Source of the DNA: a virus
Lineage: Duplodnaviria; Heunggongvirae; Uroviricota; Caudoviricetes
Direction: 5' to 3' (one strand)
DNA length: 36,121 bases
IMG/VR virus record: IMGVR_UViG_2778261180_000005
The notes below the pieces were generated by a model, which saw only the letters and a program-made list of their open reading frames with translations, made no database searches and was not told where the DNA came from. The position numbers and the translations under genes were made by a program. How positions within the stretch are numbered: position 1 is the stretch's first letter; every line of letters starts with the position of its first letter. Positions 5,652 to 24,405 of this stretch are shown here, one piece after another.

Positions 5652-6335
5652 TTAAACGTATTTCATGCGCGATTTAATGTGCTTATTGATGTTTTCAAGC
5701 ATCATTGCTTCGTTGCTTTCCCACGATCCTAGCGTCGAATAACGAGTAGAAATTTTATCCGATTTAACGGCAACAATTCGCTTACTCTGTTTCTGTATGC
5801 GTTTCTCTAAGCGACGTTTTGCCACCGCCGATCCATTCTTAGCGCGTTTGGTTCGGGATTTCTTAGGCTTGTACTTCTTCATGATAAAAGTCCCTTCCTT
5901 GTTCTCTACCTTGATGAAGTTGCCATTTTCGATGTTACGCATCATCTTACCGCCTTTGATGGCCTTAATGTTCCCGTGGGAGTCTAAGACCTTGCCGTTA
6001 GCGATTGGAACTAGCTTATTGATTTTGCCACCATCGAAATAGTGTTTCAAATAGTCGTCCTGACTTCCGATCTTCTTGTCCTTATCCCTTGCGCCCTTGA
6101 TGAAGATTTGGTGTCTGGTCCCTGATCGGTTCTTGTAGTTGGTATTACCTACAGCTTGCTGAGTCCAGCGAGTAGGTCTATCAACATTCTTGTTAATCTT
6201 CTTCTGGAGTGCTCTGGAAGCAAAGATCGCCCCTTCCCCTATCGCCCTTTCGAATGTATCGGTTGCCTTTTCAGACCATTGCCGTAACGCTTTCTTAGTC
6301 CTTAGAGCGTTTCGTTTATTGGTACTGGTTGCCAT
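5652..6335 (-). CDS. hypothetical basic protein (227 aa), possible virion/morphogenesis protein
   Basis: Lys/Arg-rich ORF. Its start follows the stop of the upstream mini-ORF by 1 nt. Function not recognisable. Confidence 0.6.
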   Translation of the reverse strand: MATSTNKRNALRTKKALRQWSEKATDTFERAIGEGAIFASRALQKKINKNVDRPTRWTQQAVGNTNYKNRSGTRHQIFIKGARDKDKKIGSQDDYLKHYFDGGKINKLVPIANGKVLDSHGNIKAIKGGKMMRNIENGNFIKVENKEGTFIMKKYKPKKSRTKRAKNGSAVAKRRLEKRIQKQSKRIVAVKSDKISTRYSTLGSWESNEAMMLENINKHIKSRMKYV

Positions 6336-6336
6336 G

Positions 6337-6507
6337 TTAGCCCCCTAATAACGAAAAGACCCCCGCCAGTGTCCTTAGCAATTGTTCGTCCACGGTCATA
6401 GCCGGGAGTTCAAGCCCAAAGGACGTAAGCAGAGGTCTAATTGCTACGTTATAAGTGAGGGCGATAATCAAGAGATAACCAAAATATTTCTTAAGTTTAT
6501 TCTTCAT
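6337..6507 (-). CDS. putative small membrane protein (56 aa), holin candidate
   Basis: Not in the ORF track. MKNKLKKYFGYLLIIALTYNVAIRPLLTSFGLELPAMTVDEQLLRTLAGVFSLLGG. SD AAAGGGG 8 nt upstream. Fills the gap between flanking genes exactly. Confidence 0.45.
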   Translation of the reverse strand: MKNKLKKYFGYLLIIALTYNVAIRPLLTSFGLELPAMTVDEQLLRTLAGVFSLLGG

Positions 6508-6525
6508 ATATTCACCCCTTTATTA

Positions 6526-6804
6526 TTATTTTTGTTTGAGTATGTCGAGAACTTGGTCAAATTTAGCGTCCATCGCAACCACTTTCTTTTCTATACCGTG
6601 AAGGGTTTGTTCCATGCGATAAACTCTCTCGGCGATCTGGTCATGGTTACTTTGCATCGTCTCAAACTTCTGGTTTAACAATGCGTCGCTGGATTCTAAT
6701 TTCGACAATCTATTTTCTGTGGCTAATTGATTTCGGTGAAGTCTCCATAATCCACCACAAATTAAGGCGATAACACCGATACCGCCATATATAATTTCAG
6801 TCAT
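6526..6804 (-). CDS. membrane-anchored coiled-coil protein (92 aa from ATG 6804), holin/spanin-like
   Basis: N-terminal TM IIYGGIGVIALICGGLW followed by a heptad-rich region. SD GGGGG before ATG 6804. The longer track start overlaps the upstream terminator. Confidence 0.6.
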   Translation of the reverse strand: MTEIIYGGIGVIALICGGLWRLHRNQLATENRLSKLESSDALLNQKFETMQSNHDQIAERVYRMEQTLHGIEKKVVAMDAKFDQVLDILKQK

Positions 6805-6849
6805 TACGCCCCCGATATTTTTATATAGTTTAATGGCAAAATTATTTAG

Positions 6850-6891
6850 ATAAAAATAATCCCGCCTAACCACAAAGAATTAAGCGGGATT
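6850..6891 (-). terminator. terminator-like hairpin after the host-specificity gene
   Basis: AATCCCGC / GCGGGATT 8-bp stem with an 18-nt loop, followed on the minus strand by ATTTTTAT. Confidence 0.55.
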
Positions 6892-6909
6892 AATTATAAA
6901 AATTAAATT

Positions 6910-9900
6910 TTAAGAAACAGAAATACCCGTAGCGGCTTTCTTAGTAACAATTACAGAAAGATCGCTGATCCATGTGCTGGGAGTCCAGTTGTTGATTGCG
7001 CTTGAACTTACTTCAAAAGTTAGCGTAACTGGTCCGTGTCCGGCTGGCATATCAATAACAGCACTATACAATCCAGTCTGTCTACCATATGCACGGTTAT
7101 ATAATTCAGCACCGTTCTTGCGAACAATCAAGCGACAGTTATCATAGTAAGTATTGTTATTCGAGCCTTCACGCGCATTAAGACCACCAAAGCTAATAGC
7201 AGGAACGATAATCTGACGATCAAACGGGTGATCATCTTCAATTCGAACAGTGATTGTACCTTGCGGATAACCGGGATAGCCCAATGATGGGTTTTCGTCC
7301 CAATGTGGGAATCGACGACCAATAGCTTTCACGAAGTCACCACGCACCTGATTAGCATCAAGCATACCCAAAATGCGGCAACTTGAATTAATCGTTACGT
7401 TGTTCATTTCGCCGGAATCAGCCACCAAATGACCACGAATATTAGCGTGTCTAAAATGACAAGTGCCATCTTTGCCGATATACCATCCATCGTTACCATT
7501 CCAGTTATAAGACTGGATATAGTTACCAATTTTAGCATTATCGATAGAGCCATCAATAATATGACCTGTTCCGATCTGTGCGTGTTGGATGTGAGCGCCG
7601 TTAATCTGGGCTGTGCCGATCTTAGCCGTGGTAATAGCCGCATCACTAATCTGGGCTGTGCCAATTGCAGCATTACGAATCATCGCATTATCGAGATAAA
7701 CTTTGTTATCTTCGATGCCAAACGGACAAACTTCTGATCCGTCTTGTGGAGCTACCGCGATTTTATCAGCCGTAAAGATGATTCTCGTCGGTTCTGCCGG
7801 ATCATTGGTTGCGCTCATATGAATACCAGCCACGCGACCATCTGCATTAACTGCCAGATTATATTTGCTGTTAATGGTTCCCTTCAAAGCATCGATTTTT
7901 ACATCTGCTTCCTGATTCACACCAGCAATCTTGCCATCCATTTCTACCCGAACTTGATCAATCTTACTTGCGCTTGCTGCCTCACTGGTAGCAATTGCTT
8001 GTTTCAGGGTAGTAGCAGATGCGCTAACTTCATTGGTGATATCGCCTTTCAGTTCAGCTTTAACCTGATCAATCTTAGTGGAGCTAGCTTGCTCGCTGGT
8101 AGCAATCAGACTCTTTAAGGTATTGGCTGAGGCTTGGACCGTCTGCCCTGTTTCGGTAGTGATTTGCTTATGCATTGCATCAATTTTAGCATCGGCATTA
8201 GCGCCAGCTTGAGCAATAGCATCCGCGATAGTTTCATCTAAGCGGTCTTGTAAACCAATCAGGTCTTCCAGTGCTTCTTTGTCCTGATCGTCCCAACTAA
8301 TGGTAGATTTCATTTGCATGAAATACGGTTCAGACCAAACAGCATCATCCATACCGAAAATATCATAGTGAGCACCACGGATATAATAATCACCGTCAGC
8401 CAAATCAAAGGAAGTATGACTAACGCTATTGGTAGTCACTGCCCTTGCATCGGAGAAAGTATTATCGGTTGCATACTGAATGATTGACCCTGCATAGTCA
8501 TGTTCTACGTCATCCGCCCAGCTAACAAACGCAGTATTAAAGCCACCACGCGCACTAAAACCTTTCATTGGCTTATGCTGTGGGTTAATAGCCACTAAAC
8601 GCGCTGGGGCGCTCTCTGAGTTGTTATAGCCCTTAGCCGATACTTCTACCGTAAGTTGACGCGAAAGGCCGTTAAACTGGTTCATATCAAGCGTATAAGT
8701 CCATGATTCAGGATCGCGGGTACGGTACTGAATAGACTTACCAGCCTTGTTAGTTACCTTGATAATGTAGGCTTCAAACAGGTCACTAAACTTGTTAGTT
8801 TCACCGTTGATAACCACATCTAAGGCTTGCTGATTTTCCCATTCGATAATCAGATCATTGCCTTCGAAAGTACCAGGTGAGCTACCCTGATTTTTGATGC
8901 GGATCACTGGCGTAGGCAGTTCATAGGTAACTTCTGGATTCTGGTTAACCAGTTCCACCCATTCGGAACGAGCAATAATACCGAAAGCACAAACGCGGTA
9001 ATCGTAGGAACGATCTTTAGCCAGTGCATTGATATTGAAAATTTGCTGTGAAGTCTGTCCCAGCTTAATCCAGTTAGGTGATCCACTCACACGATAATCA
9101 ATCTGGAAACCGTAGCGGTTAAAATCTTCCGGTGCGTCCCATGTCAAAGTTACGTTTTTACCGTGGATTGTCTCACCAGTTGCCTTAATTCTGAAATTAG
9201 TCGGTTTCTGTACTGTCATTGAATCCGGTAAACCAGTCGGTCTATTGTCTGGAGTCGCCGCATAGTTCAGGTCAGTATAAACCTGAGAATTATATTCTGT
9301 GGCGGTGATAGTCATCATCCCAGCAATACCAGAATCAATCGAGCGATCAATTGCAGTAATACGCCATAAGGAATTATTCAGCTTCAATTCATCATAGGTT
9401 ACGCTGATAACATCCCAAACTTCGGCAGTGAATGCGTCAGTAGTCATAAAGCTGATAACCTGAGTGATACGAGATTTATTTCGCTCAATGCTCGCGAGTT
9501 TATCAATCTGGGTTTTAGACTTAACAAAACGATATTCAATATCTTTAGCGATAATTCGACCATCTTGACGAATAGTAGCATCGTTTTCAGCATCAGCCGG
9601 ATAACGGAGCATTTGCTCGGAATAGTCAATTGATGGTTCTTGATACATCGCGTTAATGGTATTGAAATAACCGTTAGTGCCACCTGTTTTCAGTGATACT
9701 TTTCCCATCATGATATTGTCTTCATTGAAGGTATGCTTAACAATATCAGGAGCATCCAGTTTCAGAGTAATACGTCCAAAGGATTCGAACATTACCCCGC
9801 CGAAAGTCTGCATAAGGCTAGTCAAGTTCTCTTTAAAGCTGGCGTTCGGATCACATGCACCGTTTGAATGCAAATCCATCTGGCGTACTTGCTTACGTAC

Positions 9901-10686
9901 TTTCAGGAATGAATCAACGTTAATGTTTTCAATCGGTACGGATAATCCATATTTTTCATTTGTTAGGTAGTGGAAAATCTGGTCCACGCCGTTAGTGCTA
10001 GCCTCAATAGCATTGGTTTCGAGGTTACGAATTTTAAGGCCGCAAACGTCTACCGCTACCTGGCTATTAGGCTGGAGAATATCAACACCAGCAGCCAAAG
10101 ATTTGTCATCACGACGTAAAACAATACACATAGTCGCAATGCCGTTACCCTGATACCGGTCATCCCAATCAGCGCCCAAATGATGTTTAGCAAGATCTAA
10201 TGCAGTGTTAGGATTTTTACCAGTGCGAAACTCGACTTCTAACACTTTGCGATATTCGTCTTTAATGTTTCCTTTATCGAGAATACCATCACGAATTGTC
10301 ATATTCTGACTAATGAGAACGTTTTTATTATCGATGTGCAGTGCTTTAAAGTGATCGATCTCACCTTCGGCAATAGCAAAAATTTGTACCAGTTTGTTAT
10401 TTTCACGCTGTGAAATTGCTTTGTAAACGCAGATTGCACCAGTTCGGGTAGTACCGAAAAGAACGGGTAATACTGTCTTAGGATCGTTTGATGTTCCTAG
10501 TGTCACCGCATTATCTGGGCTTTGTACTTTCGGTGTTTTTGGTGCGCCTACAGTGGAAGCAATCAAGGTCATTGCACCAGCAGCCATACCGATAGCGACT
10601 GCGGTCATAACAGAAAATGTTGCAGCAGCAGCCATCCCAGCAGACGCACCAGCAATAACCGCGCCTACCAATACTTCAAATCCCAT
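6910..10686 (-). CDS. host-specificity / central tail-tip protein (lambda J-like, 1258 aa)
   Basis: Size and position after the NlpC/P60 gene. Ala/Gly-rich hydrophobic N-terminus (gpI-like). FN3-like region. Coiled repeats (ATSEQASSTKIDQVK / ATSEAASASKIDQVR). AxIxxAxI pseudo-repeats near the C-terminus. Confidence 0.9.
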   Translation of the reverse strand: MGFEVLVGAVIAGASAGMAAAATFSVMTAVAIGMAAGAMTLIASTVGAPKTPKVQSPDNAVTLGTSNDPKTVLPVLFGTTRTGAICVYKAISQRENNKLVQIFAIAEGEIDHFKALHIDNKNVLISQNMTIRDGILDKGNIKDEYRKVLEVEFRTGKNPNTALDLAKHHLGADWDDRYQGNGIATMCIVLRRDDKSLAAGVDILQPNSQVAVDVCGLKIRNLETNAIEASTNGVDQIFHYLTNEKYGLSVPIENINVDSFLKVRKQVRQMDLHSNGACDPNASFKENLTSLMQTFGGVMFESFGRITLKLDAPDIVKHTFNEDNIMMGKVSLKTGGTNGYFNTINAMYQEPSIDYSEQMLRYPADAENDATIRQDGRIIAKDIEYRFVKSKTQIDKLASIERNKSRITQVISFMTTDAFTAEVWDVISVTYDELKLNNSLWRITAIDRSIDSGIAGMMTITATEYNSQVYTDLNYAATPDNRPTGLPDSMTVQKPTNFRIKATGETIHGKNVTLTWDAPEDFNRYGFQIDYRVSGSPNWIKLGQTSQQIFNINALAKDRSYDYRVCAFGIIARSEWVELVNQNPEVTYELPTPVIRIKNQGSSPGTFEGNDLIIEWENQQALDVVINGETNKFSDLFEAYIIKVTNKAGKSIQYRTRDPESWTYTLDMNQFNGLSRQLTVEVSAKGYNNSESAPARLVAINPQHKPMKGFSARGGFNTAFVSWADDVEHDYAGSIIQYATDNTFSDARAVTTNSVSHTSFDLADGDYYIRGAHYDIFGMDDAVWSEPYFMQMKSTISWDDQDKEALEDLIGLQDRLDETIADAIAQAGANADAKIDAMHKQITTETGQTVQASANTLKSLIATSEQASSTKIDQVKAELKGDITNEVSASATTLKQAIATSEAASASKIDQVRVEMDGKIAGVNQEADVKIDALKGTINSKYNLAVNADGRVAGIHMSATNDPAEPTRIIFTADKIAVAPQDGSEVCPFGIEDNKVYLDNAMIRNAAIGTAQISDAAITTAKIGTAQINGAHIQHAQIGTGHIIDGSIDNAKIGNYIQSYNWNGNDGWYIGKDGTCHFRHANIRGHLVADSGEMNNVTINSSCRILGMLDANQVRGDFVKAIGRRFPHWDENPSLGYPGYPQGTITVRIEDDHPFDRQIIVPAISFGGLNAREGSNNNTYYDNCRLIVRKNGAELYNRAYGRQTGLYSAVIDMPAGHGPVTLTFEVSSSAINNWTPSTWISDLSVIVTKKAATGISVS

Positions 10687-11105
10687 TATTCACCCCCGAA
10701 TCTATAAACTTGTTCATAGTCAATGTCTGAAACAGGAATGGTCATCCAGATACCATCTTCTTCAACGAGGCCATAACCGGAATAATGAGGAACTACGGAA
10801 TAATATTTGCGGTTTCCTAATTTGTGGGCTGTGACCAGTAAGTCGCCGTCCTGTAAGTCATCAGTGACTAATTTGAAATGTTTCTTAATTGGTTGAAGGA
10901 TATTTGAATACCCGCTTAATTCTTTGCAGATTTTCAAGCCTTCTTCTTTAGTTGAATATTTTTTATAAAGAGAATTATATAGGTCAGTACCAGCGAGAAT
11001 ATCGATGATCTTACATGCAATGAGATTGCAATCATTCTCGCCTTGAACGAACTCCTGACCTATTAAAGAATTGATATAATCGGTGATAAGCCTAGTTTTT
11101 AGCAT
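10686..11105 (-). CDS. NlpC/P60-type tail peptidase (gpK-like), 139 aa from ATG 11105
   Basis: QGENDCNLIACK contains the catalytic-Cys context. Position between the minor tail and J-like genes. GGAGGT 8 nt before ATG 11105. Its stop overlaps the J-like start (TAATG). Confidence 0.75.
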   Translation of the reverse strand: MLKTRLITDYINSLIGQEFVQGENDCNLIACKIIDILAGTDLYNSLYKKYSTKEEGLKICKELSGYSNILQPIKKHFKLVTDDLQDGDLLVTAHKLGNRKYYSVVPHYSGYGLVEEDGIWMTIPVSDIDYEQVYRFGGE

Positions 11106-11151: not shown

Positions 11152-11805
11152 TTATTTCTTCGATGAATGCCACTTACTTTCGCTATTCCAGCGACCCGTC
11201 CTTGAGAAGAATAGATCGTTCTCGTTTCCAACATAGGATCGGTGGATACCATCGGAGGCATGACTTCGAGCGTTTTTATCTAGAACTTCCCAGATACTAT
11301 TAAGCTGAAATTCTGATTCGTTTTTACACTCATCATCTTCATGTTCGATGTTAATACCGATGGAATCGACTACCCCACGGAAAACAGGGTAAGTGGTTTC
11401 AACCTTGCCCGTGTTGGGGTTAAGGAAAACCATCTCGATTTTCACATCAGATTTATCGAATTGCTTGTTTCGAATCAGGGTAATGTATTCTTCGCGAACG
11501 TTAGAAACAGTTACGTTGATCCCGTTGTTGTTGATCTCCTTCTCTTCGGTATTCGATGAGATTTGAAGAAAATCACCCGTTGCGAGATACGTAAAACCGT
11601 TATAGTCCAAATCGAAATACCCATCTGTAAGCCGTAGAACGTCCCCTGACGCTGTTATCACTTCGATAATGTGAAACATCGATCCAGTGGAGAAAAGCTG
11701 CGGTAGTGTCAATCTAGACACGTTCTGACCTGTCTGGTCGTTGTATACCTCGATGAAGTCCAGATTAGTGCATAGTTTGCTGAATGATTCCTGAATAGTT
11801 GCCAT
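11152..11805 (-). CDS. minor tail / baseplate-hub protein (gpL position), 217 aa
   Basis: Call is by synteny (second gene after the tape measure). The start ATG overlaps the upstream stop (TAATG at 11805). Confidence 0.6.
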   Translation of the reverse strand: MATIQESFSKLCTNLDFIEVYNDQTGQNVSRLTLPQLFSTGSMFHIIEVITASGDVLRLTDGYFDLDYNGFTYLATGDFLQISSNTEEKEINNNGINVTVSNVREEYITLIRNKQFDKSDVKIEMVFLNPNTGKVETTYPVFRGVVDSIGINIEHEDDECKNESEFQLNSIWEVLDKNARSHASDGIHRSYVGNENDLFFSRTGRWNSESKWHSSKK

Positions 11806-12365
11806 TATACATTCTCCACTAATTCGAATTTCATCTTGCCAATCTGGGCGATCTTCCAATCGATATTTTCAGTTTTGAGAACAAATTCACCTTCTACGTT
11901 CTGATACTTGATCACCTCACCCGCCAGGACGTTCTGACGCAAGTTAGGGAAGAGTTTCATTTCGCCACCTGATTTCACATCTTCGGTGATCGTGTAGATT
12001 TTCTTGTGGTTCTCAAACTGTACAATCGTTCCCGCTTTCAGTGTTCCGGTGAAGTTGGAGAGTCTTACCTTACGCCCACCGCGAGCAGTACCAGCAGCAG
12101 CCGTAACCATCTGGCGTACATCACCTGTATATTTTGAAAAGTAAGACAGTGGCACACTAAAAGGACGACCAAAAAGGTGACGTGCTACAAATTCTTTTAC
12201 TTCGTTAATATCCTGAGCCATGAAATTCGCGGTAAATTCTGCTTCGTAAAAATGGATGCCAGTAAAGCGACGTTGGAACTTACCAGAAATAGATTGCGCC
12301 TTGAAGAAAGGCTGTTTTGATTTAAGAGTAAAATCTGTGATTTTAATATTCTTGGATTTGAACAT
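11805..12365 (-). CDS. distal tail / minor tail protein (gpM position), 186 aa from ATG 12365
   Basis: First gene after the tape measure. The alternative ATG at 12380 lies inside the terminator stem. Confidence 0.6.
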   Translation of the reverse strand: MFKSKNIKITDFTLKSKQPFFKAQSISGKFQRRFTGIHFYEAEFTANFMAQDINEVKEFVARHLFGRPFSVPLSYFSKYTGDVRQMVTAAAGTARGGRKVRLSNFTGTLKAGTIVQFENHKKIYTITEDVKSGGEMKLFPNLRQNVLAGEVIKYQNVEGEFVLKTENIDWKIAQIGKMKFELVENV

Positions 12366-12414
12366 AGAAAAAGCCCCCATAGTTTTATGATTATTTATGA
12401 CTATGGGGGCTTTT
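12366..12414 (-). terminator. hairpin/terminator between tape measure and next gene
   Basis: AAAGCCCCCATAG / CTATGGGGGCTTT stem, 18-nt loop, T-run on both strands. Confidence 0.55.
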
Positions 12415-14857: not shown

Positions 14858-15199
14858 TTAACCGCTTCTGAGTTTCTCAAGCAAAGATGGATCAAACATG
14901 TTCAGCATTGCCGCTTTACGTTCTTCTTCTTTCTTGCGTGCAATTTCTTCCAGTTCTTCTTTAGTTTTAAAGAGTTTTTCTTCTCTAATTAATTGGAATT
15001 GGCTAGGCTTGAGTTTACGTGCAGTTTCGCGTGTCATTCCTTGCGACGTCATATACATGGAATATTGCAACATCGCATTCTGCATATCATGAAACGCGGG
15101 GCTTTGTGGTTCTAAGTAGGTGTCGAAAATGTATAATTTCCAAAACAGAGTGATTGGCATATTATCCATTTCATCTTTACTAAGCCCCGATCTCATCAT
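14858..15199 (-). CDS. tail assembly chaperone, T-like distal part (probably made as a G-T frameshift fusion)
   Basis: ORF in the -1 frame relative to the upstream chaperone ORF. No SD before its ATG. The -1 frame is open from just upstream of the G stop codon. Confidence 0.6.
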   Translation of the reverse strand: MMRSGLSKDEMDNMPITLFWKLYIFDTYLEPQSPAFHDMQNAMLQYSMYMTSQGMTRETARKLKPSQFQLIREEKLFKTKEELEEIARKKEEERKAAMLNMFDPSLLEKLRSG

Positions 15200-15228: not shown

Positions 15229-15537
15229 TTACTTTACCTCGTTTTCAATTACTGCCGGATCTTGCATCAATGACGCTTGAGCAACTAAACCGATTAATTC
15301 ACTTCGAACGTTAGTATACAGTGCCTTAACTTGTTCCATAGATTCAAATACTGGCTTACCGTCTTCATCTTCAATACAACGAAGAATAGAACGTTCATCA
15401 CGGTCTTCTTTATCAGTATTGAAAACATGTTCGTTAAATTCTTTTACTGACATAGGGCGAGCATAGAAAGTGAATCCACCGATGGTCAAAGATTCACGTT
15501 TCGGAGAGAGTGCGGCTAACATTTCATTAATATTCAT
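15229..15537 (-). CDS. tail assembly chaperone (gpG-like, 102 aa)
   Basis: Small acidic ORF between the tube and tape measure genes, the canonical position. Confidence 0.65.
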   Translation of the reverse strand: MNINEMLAALSPKRESLTIGGFTFYARPMSVKEFNEHVFNTDKEDRDERSILRCIEDEDGKPVFESMEQVKALYTNVRSELIGLVAQASLMQDPAVIENEVK

Positions 15538-15585: not shown

Positions 15586-15611
15586 CAAAAAAGCCACCCC
15601 GAAGGATGGCT
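15586..15611 (-). terminator. rho-independent terminator after the tube gene
   Basis: Minus strand reads GCCATCC-TTCG-GGGTGGC followed by TTTTTT. Confidence 0.8.
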
Positions 15612-15619
15612 AGATAATA

Positions 15620-16093
15620 TTAGACGACTTTCTGGAAAACAGCTTGTTTAACCGGAGCACCATCTACTACAAAGGTGAAGGTACGGCCTACTACAGCATC
15701 CTCACCACCAGTCATGGTAGTTTTAGACAGGAAGCCGTTATAAGCGATATGTACACCAGATTTTTTCGTAGCATCGATGTAGTAAGCAATTTTAAGCTGT
15801 ACGCGCTTACCGTCTTCGGTTGCTTTAATCAGTTTTTCGTGTACTTCGTTACCCGGCATGTAGTTGATCGAAAGTTCGATATCCGGTACAGACATACGAC
15901 CAACCAGCTTACGGTTATAAGCACCAGAGAAGTTAGGAACATCGATCGTAGAACGTTCTACACCAGTTTCCGGGAACGCTGCGCATTCTGGGATTTCCAG
16001 ATAGGTTTCAGCATCAAGGTCTTTATTGCTTACGTCTTCTTGCAGAAACAGACCAACGAGGCCACCAGAGAAAATATCAAATTTAGTAGTCAT
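15620..16093 (-). CDS. major tail tube protein (157 aa)
   Basis: Immediately upstream of the chaperone pair, optimised codons, strong terminator. Paralogous to the N-terminal half of the 277-aa protein. Confidence 0.8.
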   Translation of the reverse strand: MTTKFDIFSGGLVGLFLQEDVSNKDLDAETYLEIPECAAFPETGVERSTIDVPNFSGAYNRKLVGRMSVPDIELSINYMPGNEVHEKLIKATEDGKRVQLKIAYYIDATKKSGVHIAYNGFLSKTTMTGGEDAVVGRTFTFVVDGAPVKQAVFQKVV

Positions 16094-16147
16094 TATTCTT
16101 TTCCTTCTATTTTAAACAATAGGGCACATACCCGTAATTCTATTTAT

Positions 16148-16450
16148 TTAGCGGTTGCTCAAACGTCTATAACGAAGATGAGCGACCCCCCTATTTGTGC
16201 TAACGGTAATTACCGCCCCTTGCGGTGCAATACAAGAATGGATCTGTCCCCAATCATGCCCCTTATGGCTTCCAGAAACACAAAAACCATGAATAAACAA
16301 TTCAGAGTCACCGCCGCCACCACCGGAAGAATGAGCACAGAATGAAATAGTCCCGAAAGCGTCGGCTGTCCAACCGTTAGGAATATCAAACCATCCTTGA
16401 TTTGCTTTACCCGCCCTATTCCCCAAAGCGCCATCTACCCAAAATGCCAT
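16148..16450 (-). CDS. Gly-rich small protein, paralogue 3 of 3 (100 aa)
   Basis: Shares W..(5-15)..FDIPNGW, a Gly-rich loop and a V(S/T)F/V...(Y/R)(F/Y)(K/R) C-terminus with the two upstream ORFs. Start overlaps the upstream stop (TAATG). Confidence 0.7.
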   Translation of the reverse strand: MAFWVDGALGNRAGKANQGWFDIPNGWTADAFGTISFCAHSSGGGGGDSELFIHGFCVSGSHKGHDWGQIHSCIAPQGAVITVSTNRGVAHLRYRRLSNR

Positions 16451-16755
16451 TAGTGCATTCTCCTGAATTTGAAATAATGCAATCCACCTTTACCCAATGT
16501 AAAGCTAACGGTAGCACCAGCGCCAACTAAAGAACTAGCGCCCCAACTTCCGGCATTACCAGCGTGATGACCTGATTCAATCAATCCATTTACAGCCAAT
16601 TCAGAATCAAGATCACCAGCACCGTTAATGGCTTCCATATGAGCAAAAACAATTCCGCATGAATCAGTGACCCAACCGTTGGGGATATCAAAATATCCAC
16701 CATTAGCCCAAATACTAATAGCGTTTGACATTCTTTGATTTATCCATCCAGCCAT
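16450..16755 (-). CDS. Gly-rich small protein, paralogue 2 of 3 (101 aa)
   Basis: YFDIPNGW ... GATVSFTLGKGGLHYFKF. GGAG SD lies inside the end of paralogue 1. Confidence 0.7.
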   Translation of the reverse strand: MAGWINQRMSNAISIWANGGYFDIPNGWVTDSCGIVFAHMEAINGAGDLDSELAVNGLIESGHHAGNAGSWGASSLVGAGATVSFTLGKGGLHYFKFRRMH

Positions 16756-16757
16756 AA

Positions 16758-17054
16758 TTAAAACTCCATGAATTTAAAATATTCAACACCACCTTCACCC
16801 CCTAAACCAAAGGAGACGGTGCAGCCAGCAGGAACAAACGAATTTATAGTAGATCCCCAATTGGACCCACCACGACGACGAGCAACGGTCAAACCATCTA
16901 CGTTAATATGTGCATCAGACCATCCACCACCAGCATTATGACGCATGACAGCAACGCCAGCGCGAGCAGTACCATAGCCGTTAGGAATATCAAATACATG
17001 CCATTTTAAAGCATCGATTTTAGTATTAATTTCACTACTTACCCAATATCCCAT
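16758..17054 (-). CDS. Gly-rich small protein, paralogue 1 of 3 (98 aa)
   Basis: VFDIPNGY ... GCTVSFGLGGEGGVEYFKF. SD AAGGA. Preceded by hairpin GCGGGGA-GAAA-TCCCCGC (17068-17085). Confidence 0.7.
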   Translation of the reverse strand: MGYWVSSEINTKIDALKWHVFDIPNGYGTARAGVAVMRHNAGGGWSDAHINVDGLTVARRRGGSNWGSTINSFVPAGCTVSFGLGGEGGVEYFKFMEF

Positions 17055-17091
17055 ATAAGAATCCTTAGCGGGGATTTCTCCCCGCTTCCAA

Positions 17092-20000
17092 TTACCCTAA
17101 TTTAGCTTCAATTGCAGCAAGACGTTCACGAAGAAGTTTATTTTCTTCGCTCATTTCTTGGACCGCTTTAATTAAAAGCGCGTTCACTGCGGAGTTTGAA
17201 ATTGTTAAAATTTCTTCTGGGTTATCAAGAGATCCGACATTAGAAGTGCTAACAGCTTCCGGTAAAATTTCTTGTAAATCCTGTGCGATAATACCAATCT
17301 CATGTGCGATGACTTCTCTGTCAGAAAGAGACTTAACTTTATCGTAGGTTTTAACTTTTAGTTTATTTACCTTATCTACCGCATTTTCTTCGTAGTCTTC
17401 AACGTTAATTTTCAGACGACGGTCGGAACGAATATAAACATCGTTACAGTAAACCGACGCACTAGATGTGAAATCACCATTTGCAGCCCATGAATACCAG
17501 CCGCCTTTGTTCATATGCATCATTACGGTAGCTTGACCACCGCCAGCATGAACACCCATTGCCGCAAGATGATCAACACCCCAATGAGTTGCTTTCCAAA
17601 TTGAATATGCTTGGGTATGTGAATCCTGACAATCTAAGAGAATACCAGCAGGACGGTTGCGCCAGTCATCCCATGCACCACCAGAAACCTCACCACGGAT
17701 AAGAGCGTATTCACCATTATATGGAACACGTTCTCCCGCTTTAATCATTGCACCCTGGAAGTGATGACTAAATGAACCCCCATGATTATTTCGTATATGT
17801 AAAATACCATCATCTGTAGCCCAGATAACAGCCTTTTCCGATTCGCTGTCATCTCTAAACCAGATATGGCGTGCACCAGTTGAGTTTTTGATGGTTATTC
17901 CGGTAGGTCCATGCACGGTCAAAGCACCAGCTACATCAAATAAAACGGTGTTATCTGTTCTACGTTCAGTATAGAAGTGATAACCTTTGGAATCGCCGAT
18001 TTCCATTACTGCCGCGCGTCCAACTTCTGAATTTCCCCAATTGTTGATAGAGAATCGTTCAGAGCTATTATTCATCTGATTTAGGTATAATGTACCGTCA
18101 GTGAATGTTTCGCCAAAGAATCTAGTTTTAATGCTATTGGTTCCGGTGCGTTCAAATTCGGCTAAAAATCCTTTTGAGTCACGAAGACTTAAAACGTTAT
18201 TTCGACCTGTATTGCTTGCCCCCCAATGGACGAGTTCCATATAGTCCATAGATTGACGAGAACCAGATTTAAATAAAAGGTTGTCTTCGAGACGAGTGCT
18301 ACCATCAATTCCCAGGTGCAAACAACGAGCGGTTTCAGTACCACCTAAATATAGTCCACCATCATCAAAATTATAGCTGAATGGTCTGCGATTATTCCAA
18401 CTACCAAAAGAATCTTTTAAATTGGTAGTAAGAATATGGAAGCTAGAACCGTCATTGCGTAACATCAAACCATAGTTACCGCCTTTAACAGCCAAACGAG
18501 CATTTTCAGATAATGCAACTTCGCTATTCATTACAATTTTCTGGCCTTTACCACCAGTAATATGTAATTCACCGTCTTCGATCAAATTTATCGAGTTTTG
18601 ACCGTTATCGTTCCACCAAATAAAATCTTTGGTCGTCAAATCACCAAAACCAAACCAGCCATTACGAACATCTTGACCAGTGCGATAATCCATAAAATTA
18701 AAATGGCTTGCTTCGTTTGGTCCTCGACGAATATCAATACCAGCATTAGAACCGGAACCTAAGCCACCATCGATGGTCAATCTACGAATATGCAAACCGG
18801 TTACAGCCGAAAGCAATAATTGTTGGGTTACATCGGTATATCCAGTAGCAAGACGATAATTTTGGTCATCAACACTTTCGTGCCAGATAGTGGCAGGAGC
18901 AGAACTACGGAAGCGACGCAACATCTTTTTAGCATTTGTCGGTTGTTCGTTCATATGCTCAATGTCGTATTGGCCTTGATGGTTTCCAGCAAAATTTAAC
19001 GTTCCACGGTTGCTAAAGTTATTGAACGATGAAATGTTAAGAGCATCAAAAATTTCATCTGCAACAGGTTTTTCACCACCCAGATATTCAGGAGTATCCA
19101 ACAGGTTTAAAGAAACACCACCGGAAGAAACTTGATATTCTGCTAAAACAAATCCTGTATGTGCACCGTAGTAAGCGTAAAGATCGTAATTATCACCATC
19201 GGTTGGAATAGCGCAAAAATGTTGTTCATAATGCCAAATAGTATAATACGCATTGAATACAACACCTTTCGGGCTATTGTTGCCGCATCGAATCACCAAT
19301 TCGATAATATTGGCTTGTCCATTCATCCCGACGTTATAACCGTTACCACCAACCAAACGGATCTTAGCGGTGCGACCGTGTTGCTGTGGCATTGTCAAAG
19401 TGCCTAGTTTAAACCAACCACCCTCGATCCCAAAATTAAGCGTCTTCTGGAACAGTCGGTCAATTTCTGCTTTCGAATATGCGCCAATTTCAGCCGGAGT
19501 AGGTTTATCGCCTTCATGATACATGCGGTGAGAATATGACAAGTTACCCAATTCATCGTAGCCGTATGTTCTTACCGTATGAACCGGATTAGACCCATAA
19601 GTGAACTCAAAGCCACGAGCATGATTAACACCAGATGGATGCGGAACATGCAAGATCATTGCAATATGACCCGCCAGGTCATTCATGCGGAATGCACCAA
19701 AGTAGTCAAGATTACGCGCACTCGGATCATCAAAATAGTTTGCGGTCTTAGACAACAAATAACCATCAGTATAAGTGTTTACGTGTTTTTTGATGTACTT
19801 GCCATCACTCGATCCGTCGGCTGCATCAATACGGCTTTCTAAGCGTGCCAGTTCAGAATCAGTGTAAGACTTGTTATTGTCAACTTTGCTATGAATTGCT
19901 GAATTTTTGGCTTCAACATCACGGGTTAATGCTGCGACGTTATCCGCTGCCTCTTGCTTATTAGCCGCAATCACACCAGTAAGGTTATTGTAGGTGTCAG

Positions 20001-20613
20001 TTAACTGATTTTCCGCATAGACTTTATTTGCTGCGATAGTGCGGTCAGTTTCTGTCTTAATCAGATCAACTTTGTCATTGATTGCTTTGTCATTACTTGC
20101 GATTGTCGCGTCGGTACGGGATTTAATATCATCAACTTTTTTATTGATGCGGGTGTCCAGTTCCTGAGTTGCTACAGCAGCCGCATTTTTATTAGCGTTG
20201 ATGGTATCCGACAATTCAGCTTTAACACCAGCAAGATCGGAAGCAGCTTTATTTTTATTAGCTTCGATTGTCGCGTCGGTTTCGCGTTTAATTACATCAA
20301 CTTTATTGTTAATTTCTGCATGATTTGCTGCGATAGTAGAATCAGTAGTTTGTTTAATTTCATCTACTTTAGCGTGAATATTGCGGTCATTTACTGCAAT
20401 TGTGCTATCCAATTCTTGTTTGTTAGCATCAACTTTAGATTCTAGTGCCGCGTGAGTTTCAGGAGAAACAGAGATTTGAACTACTTCATGATCTCGGTCT
20501 TTGGTAAAAATAACATGGTCTTTAAGGTTGATTGCCACCTCACCGACCTGTAATTGTTCCGGCGTTGGCTTTTTGCCAGAAACATTAGTTCGTTTAAATT
20601 GGATTGATTGCAT
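17092..20613 (-). CDS. long tail fibre with C-terminal intramolecular-chaperone (peptidase S74) domain, 1173 aa
   Basis: Fibre-type N-terminus (IQFKRTNVSGKKPTPEQLQVGEVAINLKD). About 22-aa TDxTIAANxxxINxKVDxIK shaft repeats. KPTPAEIGAYS motif. C-terminus YIRSDRRLKINVEDY...GIIAQDLQEILPEAV is typical of S74 autoproteolytic chaperones (endosialidase, T5 pb1). Confidence 0.9.
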   Translation of the reverse strand: MQSIQFKRTNVSGKKPTPEQLQVGEVAINLKDHVIFTKDRDHEVVQISVSPETHAALESKVDANKQELDSTIAVNDRNIHAKVDEIKQTTDSTIAANHAEINNKVDVIKRETDATIEANKNKAASDLAGVKAELSDTINANKNAAAVATQELDTRINKKVDDIKSRTDATIASNDKAINDKVDLIKTETDRTIAANKVYAENQLTDTYNNLTGVIAANKQEAADNVAALTRDVEAKNSAIHSKVDNNKSYTDSELARLESRIDAADGSSDGKYIKKHVNTYTDGYLLSKTANYFDDPSARNLDYFGAFRMNDLAGHIAMILHVPHPSGVNHARGFEFTYGSNPVHTVRTYGYDELGNLSYSHRMYHEGDKPTPAEIGAYSKAEIDRLFQKTLNFGIEGGWFKLGTLTMPQQHGRTAKIRLVGGNGYNVGMNGQANIIELVIRCGNNSPKGVVFNAYYTIWHYEQHFCAIPTDGDNYDLYAYYGAHTGFVLAEYQVSSGGVSLNLLDTPEYLGGEKPVADEIFDALNISSFNNFSNRGTLNFAGNHQGQYDIEHMNEQPTNAKKMLRRFRSSAPATIWHESVDDQNYRLATGYTDVTQQLLLSAVTGLHIRRLTIDGGLGSGSNAGIDIRRGPNEASHFNFMDYRTGQDVRNGWFGFGDLTTKDFIWWNDNGQNSINLIEDGELHITGGKGQKIVMNSEVALSENARLAVKGGNYGLMLRNDGSSFHILTTNLKDSFGSWNNRRPFSYNFDDGGLYLGGTETARCLHLGIDGSTRLEDNLLFKSGSRQSMDYMELVHWGASNTGRNNVLSLRDSKGFLAEFERTGTNSIKTRFFGETFTDGTLYLNQMNNSSERFSINNWGNSEVGRAAVMEIGDSKGYHFYTERRTDNTVLFDVAGALTVHGPTGITIKNSTGARHIWFRDDSESEKAVIWATDDGILHIRNNHGGSFSHHFQGAMIKAGERVPYNGEYALIRGEVSGGAWDDWRNRPAGILLDCQDSHTQAYSIWKATHWGVDHLAAMGVHAGGGQATVMMHMNKGGWYSWAANGDFTSSASVYCNDVYIRSDRRLKINVEDYEENAVDKVNKLKVKTYDKVKSLSDREVIAHEIGIIAQDLQEILPEAVSTSNVGSLDNPEEILTISNSAVNALLIKAVQEMSEENKLLRERLAAIEAKLG

Positions 20614-20640
20614 CTAATCACCTCACATAAAACAGGAATA

Positions 20641-20658
20641 AGGGAGGCGTTAACCTCC
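20641..20658 (-). terminator. intercistronic hairpin / weak terminator
   Basis: GGGAGG-6nt-CCTCCC, followed on the minus strand by T-rich TTATTCCTGTTTTAT. Confidence 0.4.
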
Positions 20659-20688
20659 CCGCGTCATGTTTTATTTAGGAAGTGAATA

Positions 20689-21522
20689 CTAGAACTCACC
20701 GAAGTCGATCCGGTCATGGATAGAAACGGCTTCAATCTCGGCTGGTGTCGGTTTTTCTTCTGTGGAATACACTTTCACCCATCCCGAATTACCGTCTTTC
20801 TGGACTGTGCGAACTCGTAAACGTGGTGCGCCGGAAGCGGTGCAAGTTAATTGCCATCCACCATCTTCATTAGGTTGAACGTGAATTAGTGAAGTATCAG
20901 CACTAAATGGATTAGATGCGCTCGATCCCTGATAAGTTACGAAACGGTTTCCGGCTAATGCTTCACTATCAATCGGACCAGTGAATGGATGTACACCAGC
21001 ACCAATACCAAAATCACCTTGTCGCAGAATTTTTCCCTCGGTCGCTATACCCCTTGCTAGAATCCCGCCATCTGGTTCAAGTTTAAATTCCAGTGTTACA
21101 GCTTTGTTATCACTACCACGGGTTTTATGTGATGTGACGTAAGCATCATAGATGACATAGTAACCAGTGTTAGCAGCACTATAGCCAGAGTTCACAACAT
21201 AGAACATACGGAAGCGTAAAGGTGTTTTATCCTCTACCGCTTTCATCAACATTGCTTGATGTTCGTCATCCAGAACACGGTTTAACGTGAGTGTCGTCGG
21301 TTCCAGTTTACGATAACCAGCAAGTTTCCCCGTAGCGTCCTGATCATACTCTTCTAACGTCTGGATATCTGTAGATTCGGTTATCGTCGGGAATGCTGCG
21401 ATGTTCTCGATAGGACTAAATGCAGGATCGAAAAAGTCCGGCTGGTTATCCACCATAGTAGACACGGAGACTTCAACATGCGACCCCGTGAAAATGTCTA
21501 AGTTATCTTGTGTAATATTCAT
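20689..21522 (-). CDS. tail-tube-like paralogue with C-terminal extension (277 aa), possible fibre-anchoring or decoration protein
   Basis: The first ~165 aa align by eye with the 157-aa tube protein (DIFxG, AAFP, KLxG, LxxN, KAxED, and the LRFRMFY / VQLKIAY strand). The C-terminal part ends EEKPTPAEIEAVS, the motif also found in the fibre. Confidence 0.65.
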   Translation of the reverse strand: MNITQDNLDIFTGSHVEVSVSTMVDNQPDFFDPAFSPIENIAAFPTITESTDIQTLEEYDQDATGKLAGYRKLEPTTLTLNRVLDDEHQAMLMKAVEDKTPLRFRMFYVVNSGYSAANTGYYVIYDAYVTSHKTRGSDNKAVTLEFKLEPDGGILARGIATEGKILRQGDFGIGAGVHPFTGPIDSEALAGNRFVTYQGSSASNPFSADTSLIHVQPNEDGGWQLTCTASGAPRLRVRTVQKDGNSGWVKVYSTEEKPTPAEIEAVSIHDRIDFGEF

Positions 21523-21531
21523 TATTACCCC

Positions 21532-21954
21532 TTAAAAACGCGCTAGATAAGAAAATTTAAGGCTAAGTGTCCCAACGATACCACCATCACTAGAATCATC
21601 GTCATAATCGGTATTAGAGGCTACTGGAGTGATATCTGAAATTGAGAAGCCCAAATCTTTAAAACGTGGGTTATCCGGCTGAATCTGGATTATCTGGCAA
21701 ATACCCTCATGAATTTTTGTTTCATGAATCTGAGAATATAATTGCATTTCGATAACACATTCAGCTTGCATTGCATTACCGCCACGAACACGCGTGTAAG
21801 TCTCATTCATTCCGGTGATCCAACAAACCACGTCATCACTAAAGCCTTGCTGAGTTTGTTCTACGTTTAAAGCCAGACCTAAATCTTGTTCGATAATATC
21901 TTGCAAGGCGCGTTTGATTTTCAGTCTAGGCATGTTATTAACGGTAGCGAGCAT
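21532..21954 (-). CDS. tail completion / terminator-like protein (140 aa from ATG 21954)
   Basis: Position between the head-tail joining gene and the tail genes. GGGGG SD 5 nt before ATG 21954. Confidence 0.5.
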   Translation of the reverse strand: MLATVNNMPRLKIKRALQDIIEQDLGLALNVEQTQQGFSDDVVCWITGMNETYTRVRGGNAMQAECVIEMQLYSQIHETKIHEGICQIIQIQPDNPRFKDLGFSISDITPVASNTDYDDDSSDGGIVGTLSLKFSYLARF

Positions 21955-22257: not shown

Positions 22258-22286
22258 CAAAAAAGCCCCACCGTTAGGCAGGGCTA
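22258..22286 (-). terminator. rho-independent terminator after the capsid gene region
   Basis: Minus strand reads AGCCCTGCC-TAAC-GGTGGGGCT (with G.T pairs) followed by TTTTTT. Confidence 0.7.
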
Positions 22287-22425: not shown

Positions 22426-24405
22426 TCATTCGGAGATGTGAAGAACTTTCAGAGCTTCCGGCTGGGTTACAACATAGTCCAGATCTACCCAGATACGCGG
22501 AACGATAGCGGACTGTGCACGGTAGGTGGTGTCGTCCATATCCAGTTCCAGACCGCCCCACTCACCGATAGTAATACCGGAGAAGTCACCCAGAACGATG
22601 TGATCTGCCGGGATAACACCAGAAGTAACTACATCGTAACCAGCCAGTTTGCCGTTTTCGATGATATAACCGGAAACACCGTTATCTTTCAGGGTAGATT
22701 CCAGTTCAGCAGCAGTTGCACCGCTCATCGCAAACTTGATCGCCTGAGCAGGAACGCCAGCGTCGGTCAGTGCTGCAATTTCTTTCAGGAAGTCTTTGTA
22801 GCTGAAAGCGGCTTTCTTAGTAACACGGCTTGCATCAACCAGTTGTTTAACCAGACCAGCAGGACCGCGCTCATTGTCTTTGTCAGACAGAATCAGTTGT
22901 TCCAGTTTGATGCGAACAGCCTGGTTGATGTGATCAGTGATCAGGGTAGCGATACCCGGAACGGTTTTAATGCTCTGACGGCTGATCGGGTTGCCACCAG
23001 CAAAAGTCTTAGGAGACAGTTTCACGTTTGCAAATTCAGCTTTGCCTTCCGGTGCAGCACCGTTTTCATCAACGAAGCCGAAAGCGTCAACGCTGGATTT
23101 AGTCATTTTTGGAATAGCGGTCGGAGCAGTCAAGCCACTGTAAACAGTCACACCCAGACGACCCAGAACGGATTCCGGCATCAGCATTTCGATGTAGGAT
23201 TCAGTCAGCAGTTTTTCGTCGGTGATAGCAGTCAGGTCAGCTTTGGTGTTACCAGCAGCAGCAGCACGCATAGCAGCAGCAGGAACGAATACAGAGCCAC
23301 CACGAGCAGCACGACCACGCTGCATAGTTGCAGTAGCAGCCATTGCGGAATATTCAGCTTCATGAGCGCCGAGCACGTCGCCATCTACCAGGGAGCGGAT
23401 TACGTTATTAAGATCGAAAGTTTTTTCCATTTTAGAGTCCTTAATTTGTTGTTCGTTGTTACGTTGAGCAGTAGCGATTTTATTTAGTGCCTTAGTGCGG
23501 AATGCTTCCGGCGTCATGTCTTTAATTGCTAATGCGCGTTTCAATTCTTCGTCATCAATATTTAGTTCGCGTGCAATTTCGCGAATTTCTAATTCGTCTT
23601 CTTCGGAACGTTCAGCCACTTCTTCGATTTTTTCTTCTTCAATCGGAGCGGCTTCACGTTCTTCTTTTACTTCTTCTGCTTCCCGAACAGTTGAACTATC
23701 ATCATCAACACTTTCAGGATGTTCAGCGTCTTTTCCGTCTTCGAGATTTTCATCTTCTTTATTCTCTTCAACTTTCGGTTCTTTATTTTCTTCTACCGGA
23801 GTTTCTTCAACCTGAGCGGGTTCTTGTTCTTCTTTGATTTCTTCGATTTGTTCTTTAGTCATATCGCGTTTAGCCTCCAAATTAACTGTGATAGTATTTA
23901 GAGAGCGATTTAAACCGACCGTATCGTCAGCAGGAACTGTCACAAATGAAATTTCAAAGGGTGCCCACTTAGTAACAATCAATTGTCCTTTAGCGTAATC
24001 GATGTGATACTCTTTAATGTCATAGCCGACCGATATTTTTTCCATCGTACCTTCAATGACTTTATTACGAATATCATTAGCCAAAGTCCCATGCTTAGAG
24101 AATTTAACCAGAGCACGGCCTACGTTATCCGCATCGATTCGAGCGTTACAGACAACACCAATGTGATTATCGAAATTATGATTGAACAGCAACGGAGCGT
24201 TATTATTCAGGCGAGACAGATCAACCGCTTCCGGTGTATGTACCAGAATTTCATCTAATACCACCATTTCTTGATTTTGCTCATCCCAGAATTGGCGCTG
24301 GTAAGGCTGGGTACTGGAGAAAGCAATTTCAAATTCGTATTGATCGTTATGCCCTTCGTTAATAACTCCACCGTAACCGTTAAGATCGCGGCGAAATTTA
24401 AGCAT
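22426..24405 (-). CDS. prohead protease / major capsid protein fusion (659 aa)
   Basis: N-terminal ~170 aa are prohead-serine-protease-like (LLFNHNFDNHIGVV). An acidic E/K-rich linker follows. The C-terminal ~350 aa are HK97-fold capsid-like. Codon usage is strongly optimised. Confidence 0.85.
   Translation of the reverse strand: MLKFRRDLNGYGGVINEGHNDQYEFEIAFSSTQPYQRQFWDEQNQEMVVLDEILVHTPEAVDLSRLNNNAPLLFNHNFDNHIGVVCNARIDADNVGRALVKFSKHGTLANDIRNKVIEGTMEKISVGYDIKEYHIDYAKGQLIVTKWAPFEISFVTVPADDTVGLNRSLNTITVNLEAKRDMTKEQIEEIKEEQEPAQVEETPVEENKEPKVEENKEDENLEDGKDAEHPESVDDDSSTVREAEEVKEEREAAPIEEEKIEEVAERSEEDELEIREIARELNIDDEELKRALAIKDMTPEAFRTKALNKIATAQRNNEQQIKDSKMEKTFDLNNVIRSLVDGDVLGAHEAEYSAMAATATMQRGRAARGGSVFVPAAAMRAAAAGNTKADLTAITDEKLLTESYIEMLMPESVLGRLGVTVYSGLTAPTAIPKMTKSSVDAFGFVDENGAAPEGKAEFANVKLSPKTFAGGNPISRQSIKTVPGIATLITDHINQAVRIKLEQLILSDKDNERGPAGLVKQLVDASRVTKKAAFSYKDFLKEIAALTDAGVPAQAIKFAMSGATAAELESTLKDNGVSGYIIENGKLAGYDVVTSGVIPADHIVLGDFSGITIGEWGGLELDMDDTTYRAQSAIVPRIWVDLDYVVTQPEALKVLHISE

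Follow-up and report, generated by a model that had tools for sequence, protein, structure and literature searches.

Background

To our knowledge, the way in which side fibres are fixed to flexible phage tails has been solved for only a few systems, namely T5 and lambda Stf with their collars, and the F-pyocins, whose fibres sit on the central shaft. Here we analyse a stretch of 36,121 nucleotides from a virus of the Caudoviricetes (IMG/VR record IMGVR_UViG_2778261180_000005; "the window" in the following), in which the gene of a 277-amino-acid (aa) protein is followed by that of a 1173-aa fibre, by three small genes and by the gene of a 157-aa tail tube protein. We propose that the 277-aa protein, a paralogue of the tube protein, forms a specialised minor ring of tube fold that holds T4-type side fibres. 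We give this reading a probability of about 0.65; the ring, its copy number and its place on the tail are what we infer. If true, a duplicated tube subunit that carries the fibre would be a fourth solution to the problem.

The closest described systems each share a part of this arrangement. In phage T5, protein p140 is a paralogue of the tube protein and forms a single ring that supports the fibre collar (PMC10038345). The 277-aa protein is likewise a tube-protein paralogue that goes back to a gene duplication. However, p140 consists of two fused tube domains, forms a trimer and has no extension of its own, whereas the 277-aa protein has a single tube domain and its own connector. In T5 the fibres are held by a collar of a separate protein of the immunoglobulin (Ig)-like type (p132, 12 copies), whereas here a single polypeptide serves as anchor and connector; we see no collar protein, and no search was aimed at p132 homologues. 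Finally, the p140 gene lies among the baseplate genes, while the 277-aa gene lies upstream of the tube gene.

In Ur-lambda, each trimeric Stf fibre has three anchoring domains on short flexible linkers and supplements a central fibre of the J type (PMC12617516). The logic of an anchor on a flexible linker, joined to a trimeric fibre and combined with a J-type tip protein, is common to Ur-lambda and the prophage studied here. On the other hand, the lambda Stf anchor is a six-stranded sheet with a helix (about 94 residues), of which 12 copies sit outside the tube at the junction of gpV and gpM, whereas the anchor here is a true tube paralogue that we predict to form part of the tube. We were not able to find the collar domain of lambda Stf on the 1173-aa fibre: the N-terminus of the fibre is of the gp37 type, and the anchor is the tube domain.

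The third comparison is with the long tail fibre of T4, to which the junction is homologous on both sides (a C-terminus of the gp36 type meets an N-terminus of the gp37 type). The fibre body and the genes that follow it are common to T4-like phages and this prophage even at the DNA level. In contrast to T4, there is no proximal half-fibre (gp34) and no knee (gp35), the gp36-like part of about 80 residues is fused to a tube domain, and the particle is a non-contractile, lambda-like siphophage. As for Dit (and also gp54 and gp48 of T4), Dit genes come after the tape measure gene and their products have OB or galectin-type domains; the prophage has its own gene at that place (11805-12380), and the sequence of the 277-aa protein is nearer to that of the tube protein than to that of any Dit.

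In our literature searches we found no description of a fusion between tube domain and fibre as a means of fibre attachment, and the literature on Alishewanella LSH1, Alteromonas R7M and the F-pyocins was not relevant to such an architecture. The tube fold, the gp36/gp37 joint and the specialised ring of a tube paralogue are known already, and what our literature searches did not yield is their combination: a tube subunit would itself be the fibre anchor, either covalently or via a T4-type joint.

Homology of the two tube proteins

The 277-aa and the 157-aa protein are paralogues with the canonical tail-tube fold, and their relationship is confirmed far beyond chance. Both open reading frames lie on the minus strand, in the order that a first-pass annotation of the sequence had given (tube paralogue, fibre, three small paralogues, tube, chaperones). 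The same annotation had claimed, from an alignment by eye, that the 277-aa protein's N-terminal part is homologous to the tube protein. This is borne out by a profile-profile alignment, by a shared PHROG match and by the same succession of fold elements.

Homologues of the two proteins were gathered and clustered at 90% identity, which gave 84 clusters for the 277-aa and 31 clusters for the 157-aa protein. Diverse subsets of 19 and 13 sequences, respectively, were compared with hhalign, and the two families align over 155 columns with a probability of 98.5% (E = 1.9e-15), residues 5-165 of the paralogue falling on residues 2-156 of the tube protein. All of the motifs noticed by eye (DIFxG, AAFP, KLxG, LxxN and KAxED) lie inside this alignment. 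Both proteins match PHROG 158, "major tail protein", at equivalent profile positions (E = 8.9e-9 for the 277-aa and 6.7e-20 for the 157-aa protein). Moreover, a search of 1.84 billion representative proteins with the profile of the 277-aa family retrieved nine proteins of the size of a tube protein (151-165 aa, E between 1e-11 and 3e-17), one of which is 34% identical to the tube protein of the window. By comparison, Pfam and NCBIfam yielded nothing for the 277-aa protein apart from Phage_tail_2 at E = 0.096, and when the PDB sequences were searched with profiles of the paralogue and tube families, no solved relative came up.

The 277-aa family, in which E. coli, Salmonella, Providencia, Edwardsiella and Proteus are represented, has 42 invariant columns. 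The N-terminal DIFxG and the FP and KLxG motifs that bound the hairpin do not vary in either family, and their alignment is free of gaps. In the tube of T5, it is the long loops and the N-terminus that make the contacts between rings (PMC10038345).

AlphaFold models of the two proteins have overall predicted local distance difference test (pLDDT) scores of 63.5 and 68.6, which is moderate, the tube domain of the paralogue being mostly at 77-93. The models share the strand succession, with its long hairpin, single helix and four additional strands, and the tube domain of the paralogue shows the beta-sandwich, the single flanking alpha-helix and the long hairpin loop of a canonical tube protein. 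The top match in the PDB carries the misleading label "putative neck whiskers protein"; this is gp24, which has been identified as a tail tube protein (PMC12724387). Major tail proteins are also among the Foldseek matches to viral models. Thus, both the profile and the structure comparison find related folds of the canonical tail-tube type in the two proteins.

Linker and C-terminal extension of the paralogue

The tube domain is followed by a glycine-rich linker that is conserved across the family (G169, G172, G174, G176, G191, N192 and R193 are invariant) and is recognisable as GDYGVGANG...GNSF in the fused proteins of the Pantoea clade described below. Residues 162-210 have a pLDDT below 50 in the model. 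After the linker there is a small beta-rich part and then the C-terminal end, ...KVYSTEEKPTPAEIEAVSIHDRIDFGEF.

The first-pass annotation had called the extension fibre-like, on account of the motifs EEKPTPAEIEAVS at the end of the paralogue and GDKPTPAEIGAYS in the fibre. Both motifs are present and belong to a longer similarity, since residues 196-270 of the paralogue resemble residues 300-380 of the fibre (E = 3e-4). The fibre-like character can be stated more precisely: the extension is a shortened connector of the T4 gp36 type. The last 28 residues align with the end of the gp36 homologue of phage G37-3, C-terminus on C-terminus, with 14 of 28 identical (E = 1e-5; the same match is found by tblastn over the whole window at E = 7e-4). 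The G37-3 protein ends in ...ELYHEGHKPTPAEVGAVPLNAVIDFGTF, and T4 gp36 in ...KDSVQDFGYY. The typical gp36 end, (I/V)DFG(Y/T/E)(Y/F) after Y-x3-KPxxA(D/E), is present here and kept in all family members in which paralogue and fibre are split. A bridge to the full-length connector is provided by a Klebsiella protein of 395 aa (P0172), which the profile of the 277-aa family covers over its whole length (2.3e-73) and whose residues 225-381 align to residues 6-165 of T4 gp36 (E = 1e-15); that is, it consists of a tube domain and a near-complete gp36. Judged from these matches, the C-terminal extension is a gp36 homologue reduced to its two ends, about 80 residues in all. In T4, the gp36 trimer binds gp37 at its N-terminal region, which starts distal half-fibre assembly (PMC3004832). 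At the equivalent gp36/gp37 boundary, where the window has a stem-loop (Table 1), a terminator is annotated in G37-3.

The fibre and the small genes

On the other side of the joint, the N-terminal 64 residues of the fibre match residues 4-61 of T4 gp37 (E = 3e-9), and over residues 285-1173 its identity to gp37 of the T4-like phage G37-3 is 79%. The fibre contains a Gp34_trimer domain (647-747) and a Peptidase_S74 intramolecular chaperone (1063-1121), and matches PHROG 1699, long tail fibre distal subunit, at 1e-132. With tblastn we found no homologue of gp35 (of T4 or G37-3) or of gp38 in the window, and T4 gp34 gave only internal repeat similarity inside the fibre; therefore, the tube domain would replace both the proximal half-fibre and the knee.

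Between the gp37-like N-terminus and the body, the fibre has about 210 residues of VDxIKxxTDxTIxAN... repeats (19819-20451, about residues 55-265), a segment that G37-3 gp37 does not have. There is a weak match of the Apolipoprotein type over residues 80-249, and the repeats probably form a helical spacer that lengthens the fibre.

In megablast comparisons, the fibre gene and the three small genes that follow it are 80-95% identical in DNA to T4-like phages, counting the matching stretches only. The longest match pairs 16132-19527 of the window with 6001-9386 of Krischvirus vB_EcoM_G37-3 (L003) at 87% identity, and with Tequatrovirus fibre genes the identity rises to as much as 95% over shorter stretches. 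Such high identity points to a recent exchange between temperate siphophages and lytic T4-like phages, and it implies that the fibre itself is the recently exchanged part of the cassette.

G37-3, too, has three small genes after gp37, at the position of gp38, and the middle one is 98% identical to that of the window. The proteins share a W..FDIPNGW motif; none of them has a match in Pfam, PHROG or NCBIfam. In our phage collection the small genes occur in three T4-like phages only, always as a triplet and always at the gp38 position. Three relatives of the prophage with a different fibre tip (L007, L008 and L011) do not have them, and therefore the small genes go with the type of fibre tip. Their products may be tip adhesins or assembly factors.

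Relatives and origin of the arrangement

We collected about 100 loci, which came from viral contigs, from a single species-representative genome and from annotated records, and mapped their neighbouring genes with HMMER. In all of the roughly 70 loci with sufficient flanks we see the same order: FII-like gene, 140-aa gene, paralogue, fibre, optional small genes, tube, chaperones, tape measure and the next tail gene. That a fibre cassette headed by the paralogue lies between the neck genes and the tube gene, as had been described for the window, thus holds in every relative examined, and among these loci no member of the family was found to be without the fibre or without the paralogue. In very distant Vibrio phages, with a tube protein of 26-28% identity, there is just one tube gene, and the corresponding site holds no fibre. 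A profile search of genome contigs with the tube family returned one locus, from Buttiauxella.

Where the paralogue is a separate gene, its length depends on the lineage: the E. coli protein has 277 aa, that of one clade 299 aa, those of several others (Buttiauxella among them) 446-485 aa, and that in the record of phage DCP80 699 aa. In every such split relative the paralogue ends in ...KPTxxE/DI..A....(I/V/L)D(F/L/A)G.. and the next gene opens with an N-terminus of the gp37 type. In a distant clade, found in Pantoea agglomerans genomes, tube domain, glycine-rich linker and whole fibre form a single polypeptide of 709-1019 aa, which has Collar and Peptidase_S74 domains and is encoded directly upstream of a 150-aa tube gene. 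Fused forms appear to be common. The tube domain is N-terminal in 125 of the best 150 representative clusters; 99 of these 125 are 560-1563 aa long (median 960), the examples inspected carrying a whole fibre, and in 111 the match continues past the linker into the beta part. The named members, which belong to Serratia, Klebsiella, Leclercia, Kluyvera, Erwinia and E. coli, are annotated as "tail fiber protein" or "hypothetical".

In an identity matrix and a rough tree, the tube proteins group together (33-66% identity) and so do the paralogue domains (20-55%), while identities between the two groups are 16-31%. For the Pantoea paralogue identity alone is ambiguous, and it is the linker that it has in common with the paralogue family. 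Two separate groups across lineages indicate one old duplication, after which the paralogue has evolved faster. The arrangement goes back to the ancestor of a whole group of Enterobacterales prophages, and a tandem duplication of the tube gene is its best explanation. The first-pass annotation had spoken of a cassette inserted upstream of the tube gene; its location stands, whereas a recent insertion does not agree with an ancestral arrangement. Among the E. coli relatives, two types of tube protein that are 58% identical occur with near-identical paralogue, terminator-like and distal tail genes. Because both types share near-identical neighbours, mosaic exchange does not tell which of them the paralogue ring would contact.

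Several loci differ in detail. A second type of cassette in E. coli has a different fibre, the tube protein of just 58% identity and, between the tube gene and chaperone G, an extra gene for a 168-aa protein (L021, 10643-11149), whose N-terminus resembles that of a 265-aa gene (L085, 14658-15455) located between fibre and tube in another clade. In one close relative (L005, 10557-12203) the chaperone G gene is in two pieces about 1.2 kilobases (kb) apart, which suggests an insertion there. A full siphophage head-tail module of this prophage family, spanning terminase, portal, capsid, paralogue, fibre, tube and tape measure, occupies positions 1-21560 of the 141-kb record of "Escherichia phage DCP80" (PQ671644.1, L001), which is classed as Gaprivervirus, a T4-like group; this record may be a chimeric assembly, or the lysate may have been contaminated by an induced prophage.

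Major tube protein and tail terminator

By its context and conservation, the 157-aa protein, and not the paralogue, is the major tube protein. Four observations lead to this assignment: in all relatives the 157-aa gene takes the canonical slot before the genes of chaperones G/GT and of the tape measure, from which the paralogue is set apart by the fibre cassette; it is more conserved than the paralogue domain; in one clade it has an Ig-like C-terminal decoration, as do many major tail proteins; and its gene is followed by a terminator-like hairpin. A comparable hairpin was found by the same scan 3' of the capsid gene (22264-22285). In addition, the family protein is usually about 1000 aa long, which makes it unlikely that the paralogue is present in about 180 copies per tail.

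The 140-aa protein encoded directly upstream of the paralogue is likely the tail terminator, albeit with low certainty. Its family has a weak match to lambda gpU (hhalign E = 0.011, 92 collinear columns) and no similarity to gpZ (E = 0.29). It has no match in Pfam, its 44 homologues carry no Pfam annotation, and searches of the PDB with the single sequence and with the profile gave chance-level matches only.

A tube-fold ring as possible fibre anchor

That the tube-fold domain would anchor the fibres has strong comparative support, because in most lineages the domain stands at the N-terminus of a polypeptide of fibre length. In the mechanism that we propose, the tube domain would build a single ring, or a very small number of them, in line with the tube of the 157-aa protein, stacking through the same elements as the tube itself, that is, the N-terminal DIFxG arm and the long beta-hairpin. 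An in-line ring is suggested by the fact that the motifs of both elements, which mediate stacking in solved tubes, are kept. The flexible linkers would allow three neighbouring C-terminal tails to form a gp36-like trimeric stub, and this stub would capture the gp37-like N-terminus of the 1173-aa fibre, so that a hexameric ring would hold two fibres. The side fibres may then speed up adsorption alongside the central fibre of the lambda J type (6910-10686). As to the position of the ring, we would put about 60% on a place next to the distal tail protein, about 25% on a place under the terminator and about 15% on scattered or other places. A ring close to the tip is favoured by the precedents of T5 p140, whose ring is set between the final ring of the tube and the distal tail protein, and of lambda Stf, and by the J-type central fibre.

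A number of points weigh against this reading. The two proteins are not significantly similar in a pairwise BLASTP comparison (E = 2.3), and therefore the alignment by eye was insufficient alone and family-level tests were needed. The profile of the window family matches T4 gp36 weakly (E = 0.004, 22 columns), so that the gp36 assignment rests on the C-terminal 28 residues and the Klebsiella bridge, and the C-terminal part is modelled with low confidence (pLDDT 53-66). The assignment of the 140-aa protein as terminator is weak at E = 0.011. A sixfold ring that feeds trimeric fibres would require a symmetry breaking, which seems plausible. Incorporation of the paralogue into the virion, its oligomeric state and its location are what we infer from sequences and models. 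Finally, the gene order (terminator-like gene, paralogue, tube) suggests a ring close to the head rather than to the tip.

This last point leads to the strongest alternative, in which the paralogue ring would sit directly under the terminator and neck fibres would hang along the tail, with the same docking chemistry as proposed above. All relatives have the paralogue gene between the terminator-like gene and that of the tube, and the order of tail proteins in the virion often follows the gene order (PMC11784142). Furthermore, from residue counts and textbook rises we estimate about 100 nm for the fibre and about 120 nm for the tail (809-aa tape measure), so that a fibre fixed at the neck would reach close to the tip. 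However, a tandem duplication of the tube gene explains the gene position equally well, the gene-order rule has a counter-example in T5 p143 (PMC11784142), and side fibres are expected to cooperate near the tip with a central fibre of the lambda J type. We consider the head-proximal ring unlikely, although it is to be taken more seriously than the readings that follow. The sequence gives no hint of what would limit the paralogue to one ring, its stacking motifs are those of the tube, and the ribosome-binding sites of both genes are reasonable; hence one may ask whether the paralogue co-polymerises at many tube positions, or even is the main tube protein, with fibres along the whole tail. Given that most family members have 560-1563 aa, some 180 copies per tail would come at a very high cost and would crowd each other sterically, whereas the 157-aa protein has the marks of a major tube protein (position, conservation and the Ig-like decoration in one clade) and the paralogue domain evolves faster than the tube, as expected of a specialised part in low copy number. 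This makes co-polymerisation an improbable option.

We give still less credit to the view that the 277-aa protein takes the role of gpU, as a tail terminator with a fibre-binding extension, and that the 140-aa protein is the tail completion protein. It would fit the lambda synteny FII, Z, U, V, in which the paralogue comes to stand at U if the 140-aa protein is Z-like, and only two small neck genes precede the paralogue. Tail terminators, which have a four-stranded sheet and two helices, are related in fold to the tube domain (PMC11784142). Against this, the 277-aa protein has no match to gpU (E = 0.24), and its model shows a canonical tube domain and not the terminator fold. The idea that the paralogue is a decaying or non-structural duplicate and that the fibre is attached elsewhere, e.g. 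to tail tip proteins, is hardly credible: the protein is full-length, well conserved in the 84 clusters with their 42 invariant columns, always paired with a fibre gene and, in many lineages, covalently fused to the fibre. We therefore prefer the specialised minor ring that holds the side fibres.

A wider claim can be made, to which we give slightly less than even odds: fibres headed by a tube domain may be a widespread and so far undescribed mode of attachment that uses a ring in the tube, rather than a collar round it, as anchor, is split at the gp36/gp37 joint in E. coli and Salmonella, and draws on a fibre pool shared with T4-like phages. If so, lambda-like prophages and T4-like phages would swap from one pool of plug-compatible receptor-binding fibres. 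The locus documents that a temperate siphophage and lytic T4-like phages have recently exchanged fibres. The fibre-holding ring would assign a function to a conserved "hypothetical protein" that many Enterobacterales prophages and about 1% of the complete E. coli genomes encode, and it would explain why a fibre cassette lies amid the block of genes from neck to tube. The defined joint would also be a natural splice point at which T4-like fibres could be put onto siphophage or tailocin scaffolds for host-range engineering.

Prophage setting and late genes

The window of about 36 kb is an Escherichia coli prophage. Its bases 1-25000 are 94-95% identical to chromosomal regions in 60 of 5426 complete E. 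coli genomes, with a coverage of at least 80% in 24 of these 60. The late genes on the minus strand start with the large terminase, a 164-aa gene, the portal, a fused protease-capsid gene, the 96-aa FII-like gene and the 140-aa gene; they continue with the 277-aa paralogue, the 1173-aa fibre, three genes of about 100 aa and the 157-aa tube, and end with chaperones G and T, the tape measure, three tail-tip genes and a 1258-aa tip protein. The coordinates of the features discussed are given in Table 1. As the 1258-aa protein ends in the C-terminal receptor-binding domain of lambda gpJ (Ig_GpJ_C, 1.8e-35), T4-type side fibres and a lambda-type central fibre are probably combined in one phage.

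Table 1. Features of the tail tube and fibre region, in window coordinates.
Feature	Position	Strand	Remarks
Head-tail joining protein, lambda FII-like, 96 aa	21938..22228	-	Pfam Phage_attach, E = 1.9e-4, under the curated cut-off
Candidate tail terminator, 140 aa (156 aa from the first start codon)	21532..21954	-	Directly upstream of the paralogue; in all relatives
Tail-tube domain of the 277-aa paralogue, residues 1-165	21028..21522	-	
Glycine-rich linker, residues 166-195	20938..21027	-	LRQGDFGIGAGV...GNRF
Putative mini-gp36 connector, residues 196-277 and stop	20689..20937	-	Ends in ...YSTEEKPTPAEIEAVSIHDRIDFGEF
Stem-loop with weak T tract between paralogue and fibre genes	20641..20660	-	Terminator-like scan
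gp37-type side fibre, 1173 aa	17092..20613	-	T4 gp37 N-terminus; G37-3 gp37 body; PHROG 1699
Three paralogous genes of about 100 aa	16758-17054, 16450-16755, 16148-16450	-	Mutual similarity 35-47 bits
Major tail tube protein, 157 aa	15620..16093	-	
Terminator-like hairpin and T run 3' of the tube gene	15592..15611	-	Terminator-like scan
Tail assembly chaperone G	15229-15537	-	Weak Pfam Phage_TAC_13; PHROG 344 tail assembly chaperone (G/T entry)
Tail assembly chaperone T	14858-15199	-	Weak Pfam Phage_tail_T; PHROG 344 tail assembly chaperone (G/T entry)

At 995-2689 the window encodes a 564-aa large serine recombinase with Resolvase, Recombinase and Zn_ribbon_recom domains, presumably the integrase of the prophage. 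In strain ETEC1718 (L002) the prophage is bounded by the two halves of the antitoxin gene hicB (10845-10964 and 44282-44593), and a serine recombinase gene adjoins. This relative also has an additional 340-aa hypothetical gene in the interval between portal and capsid (L002, 35460-36482), which the window does not have. The capsid gene of the window (22426-24405) encodes a single polypeptide of 659 aa, with a prohead protease domain (Peptidase_S78) at residues 40-162, an acidic middle part and Phage_capsid at residues 402-656.

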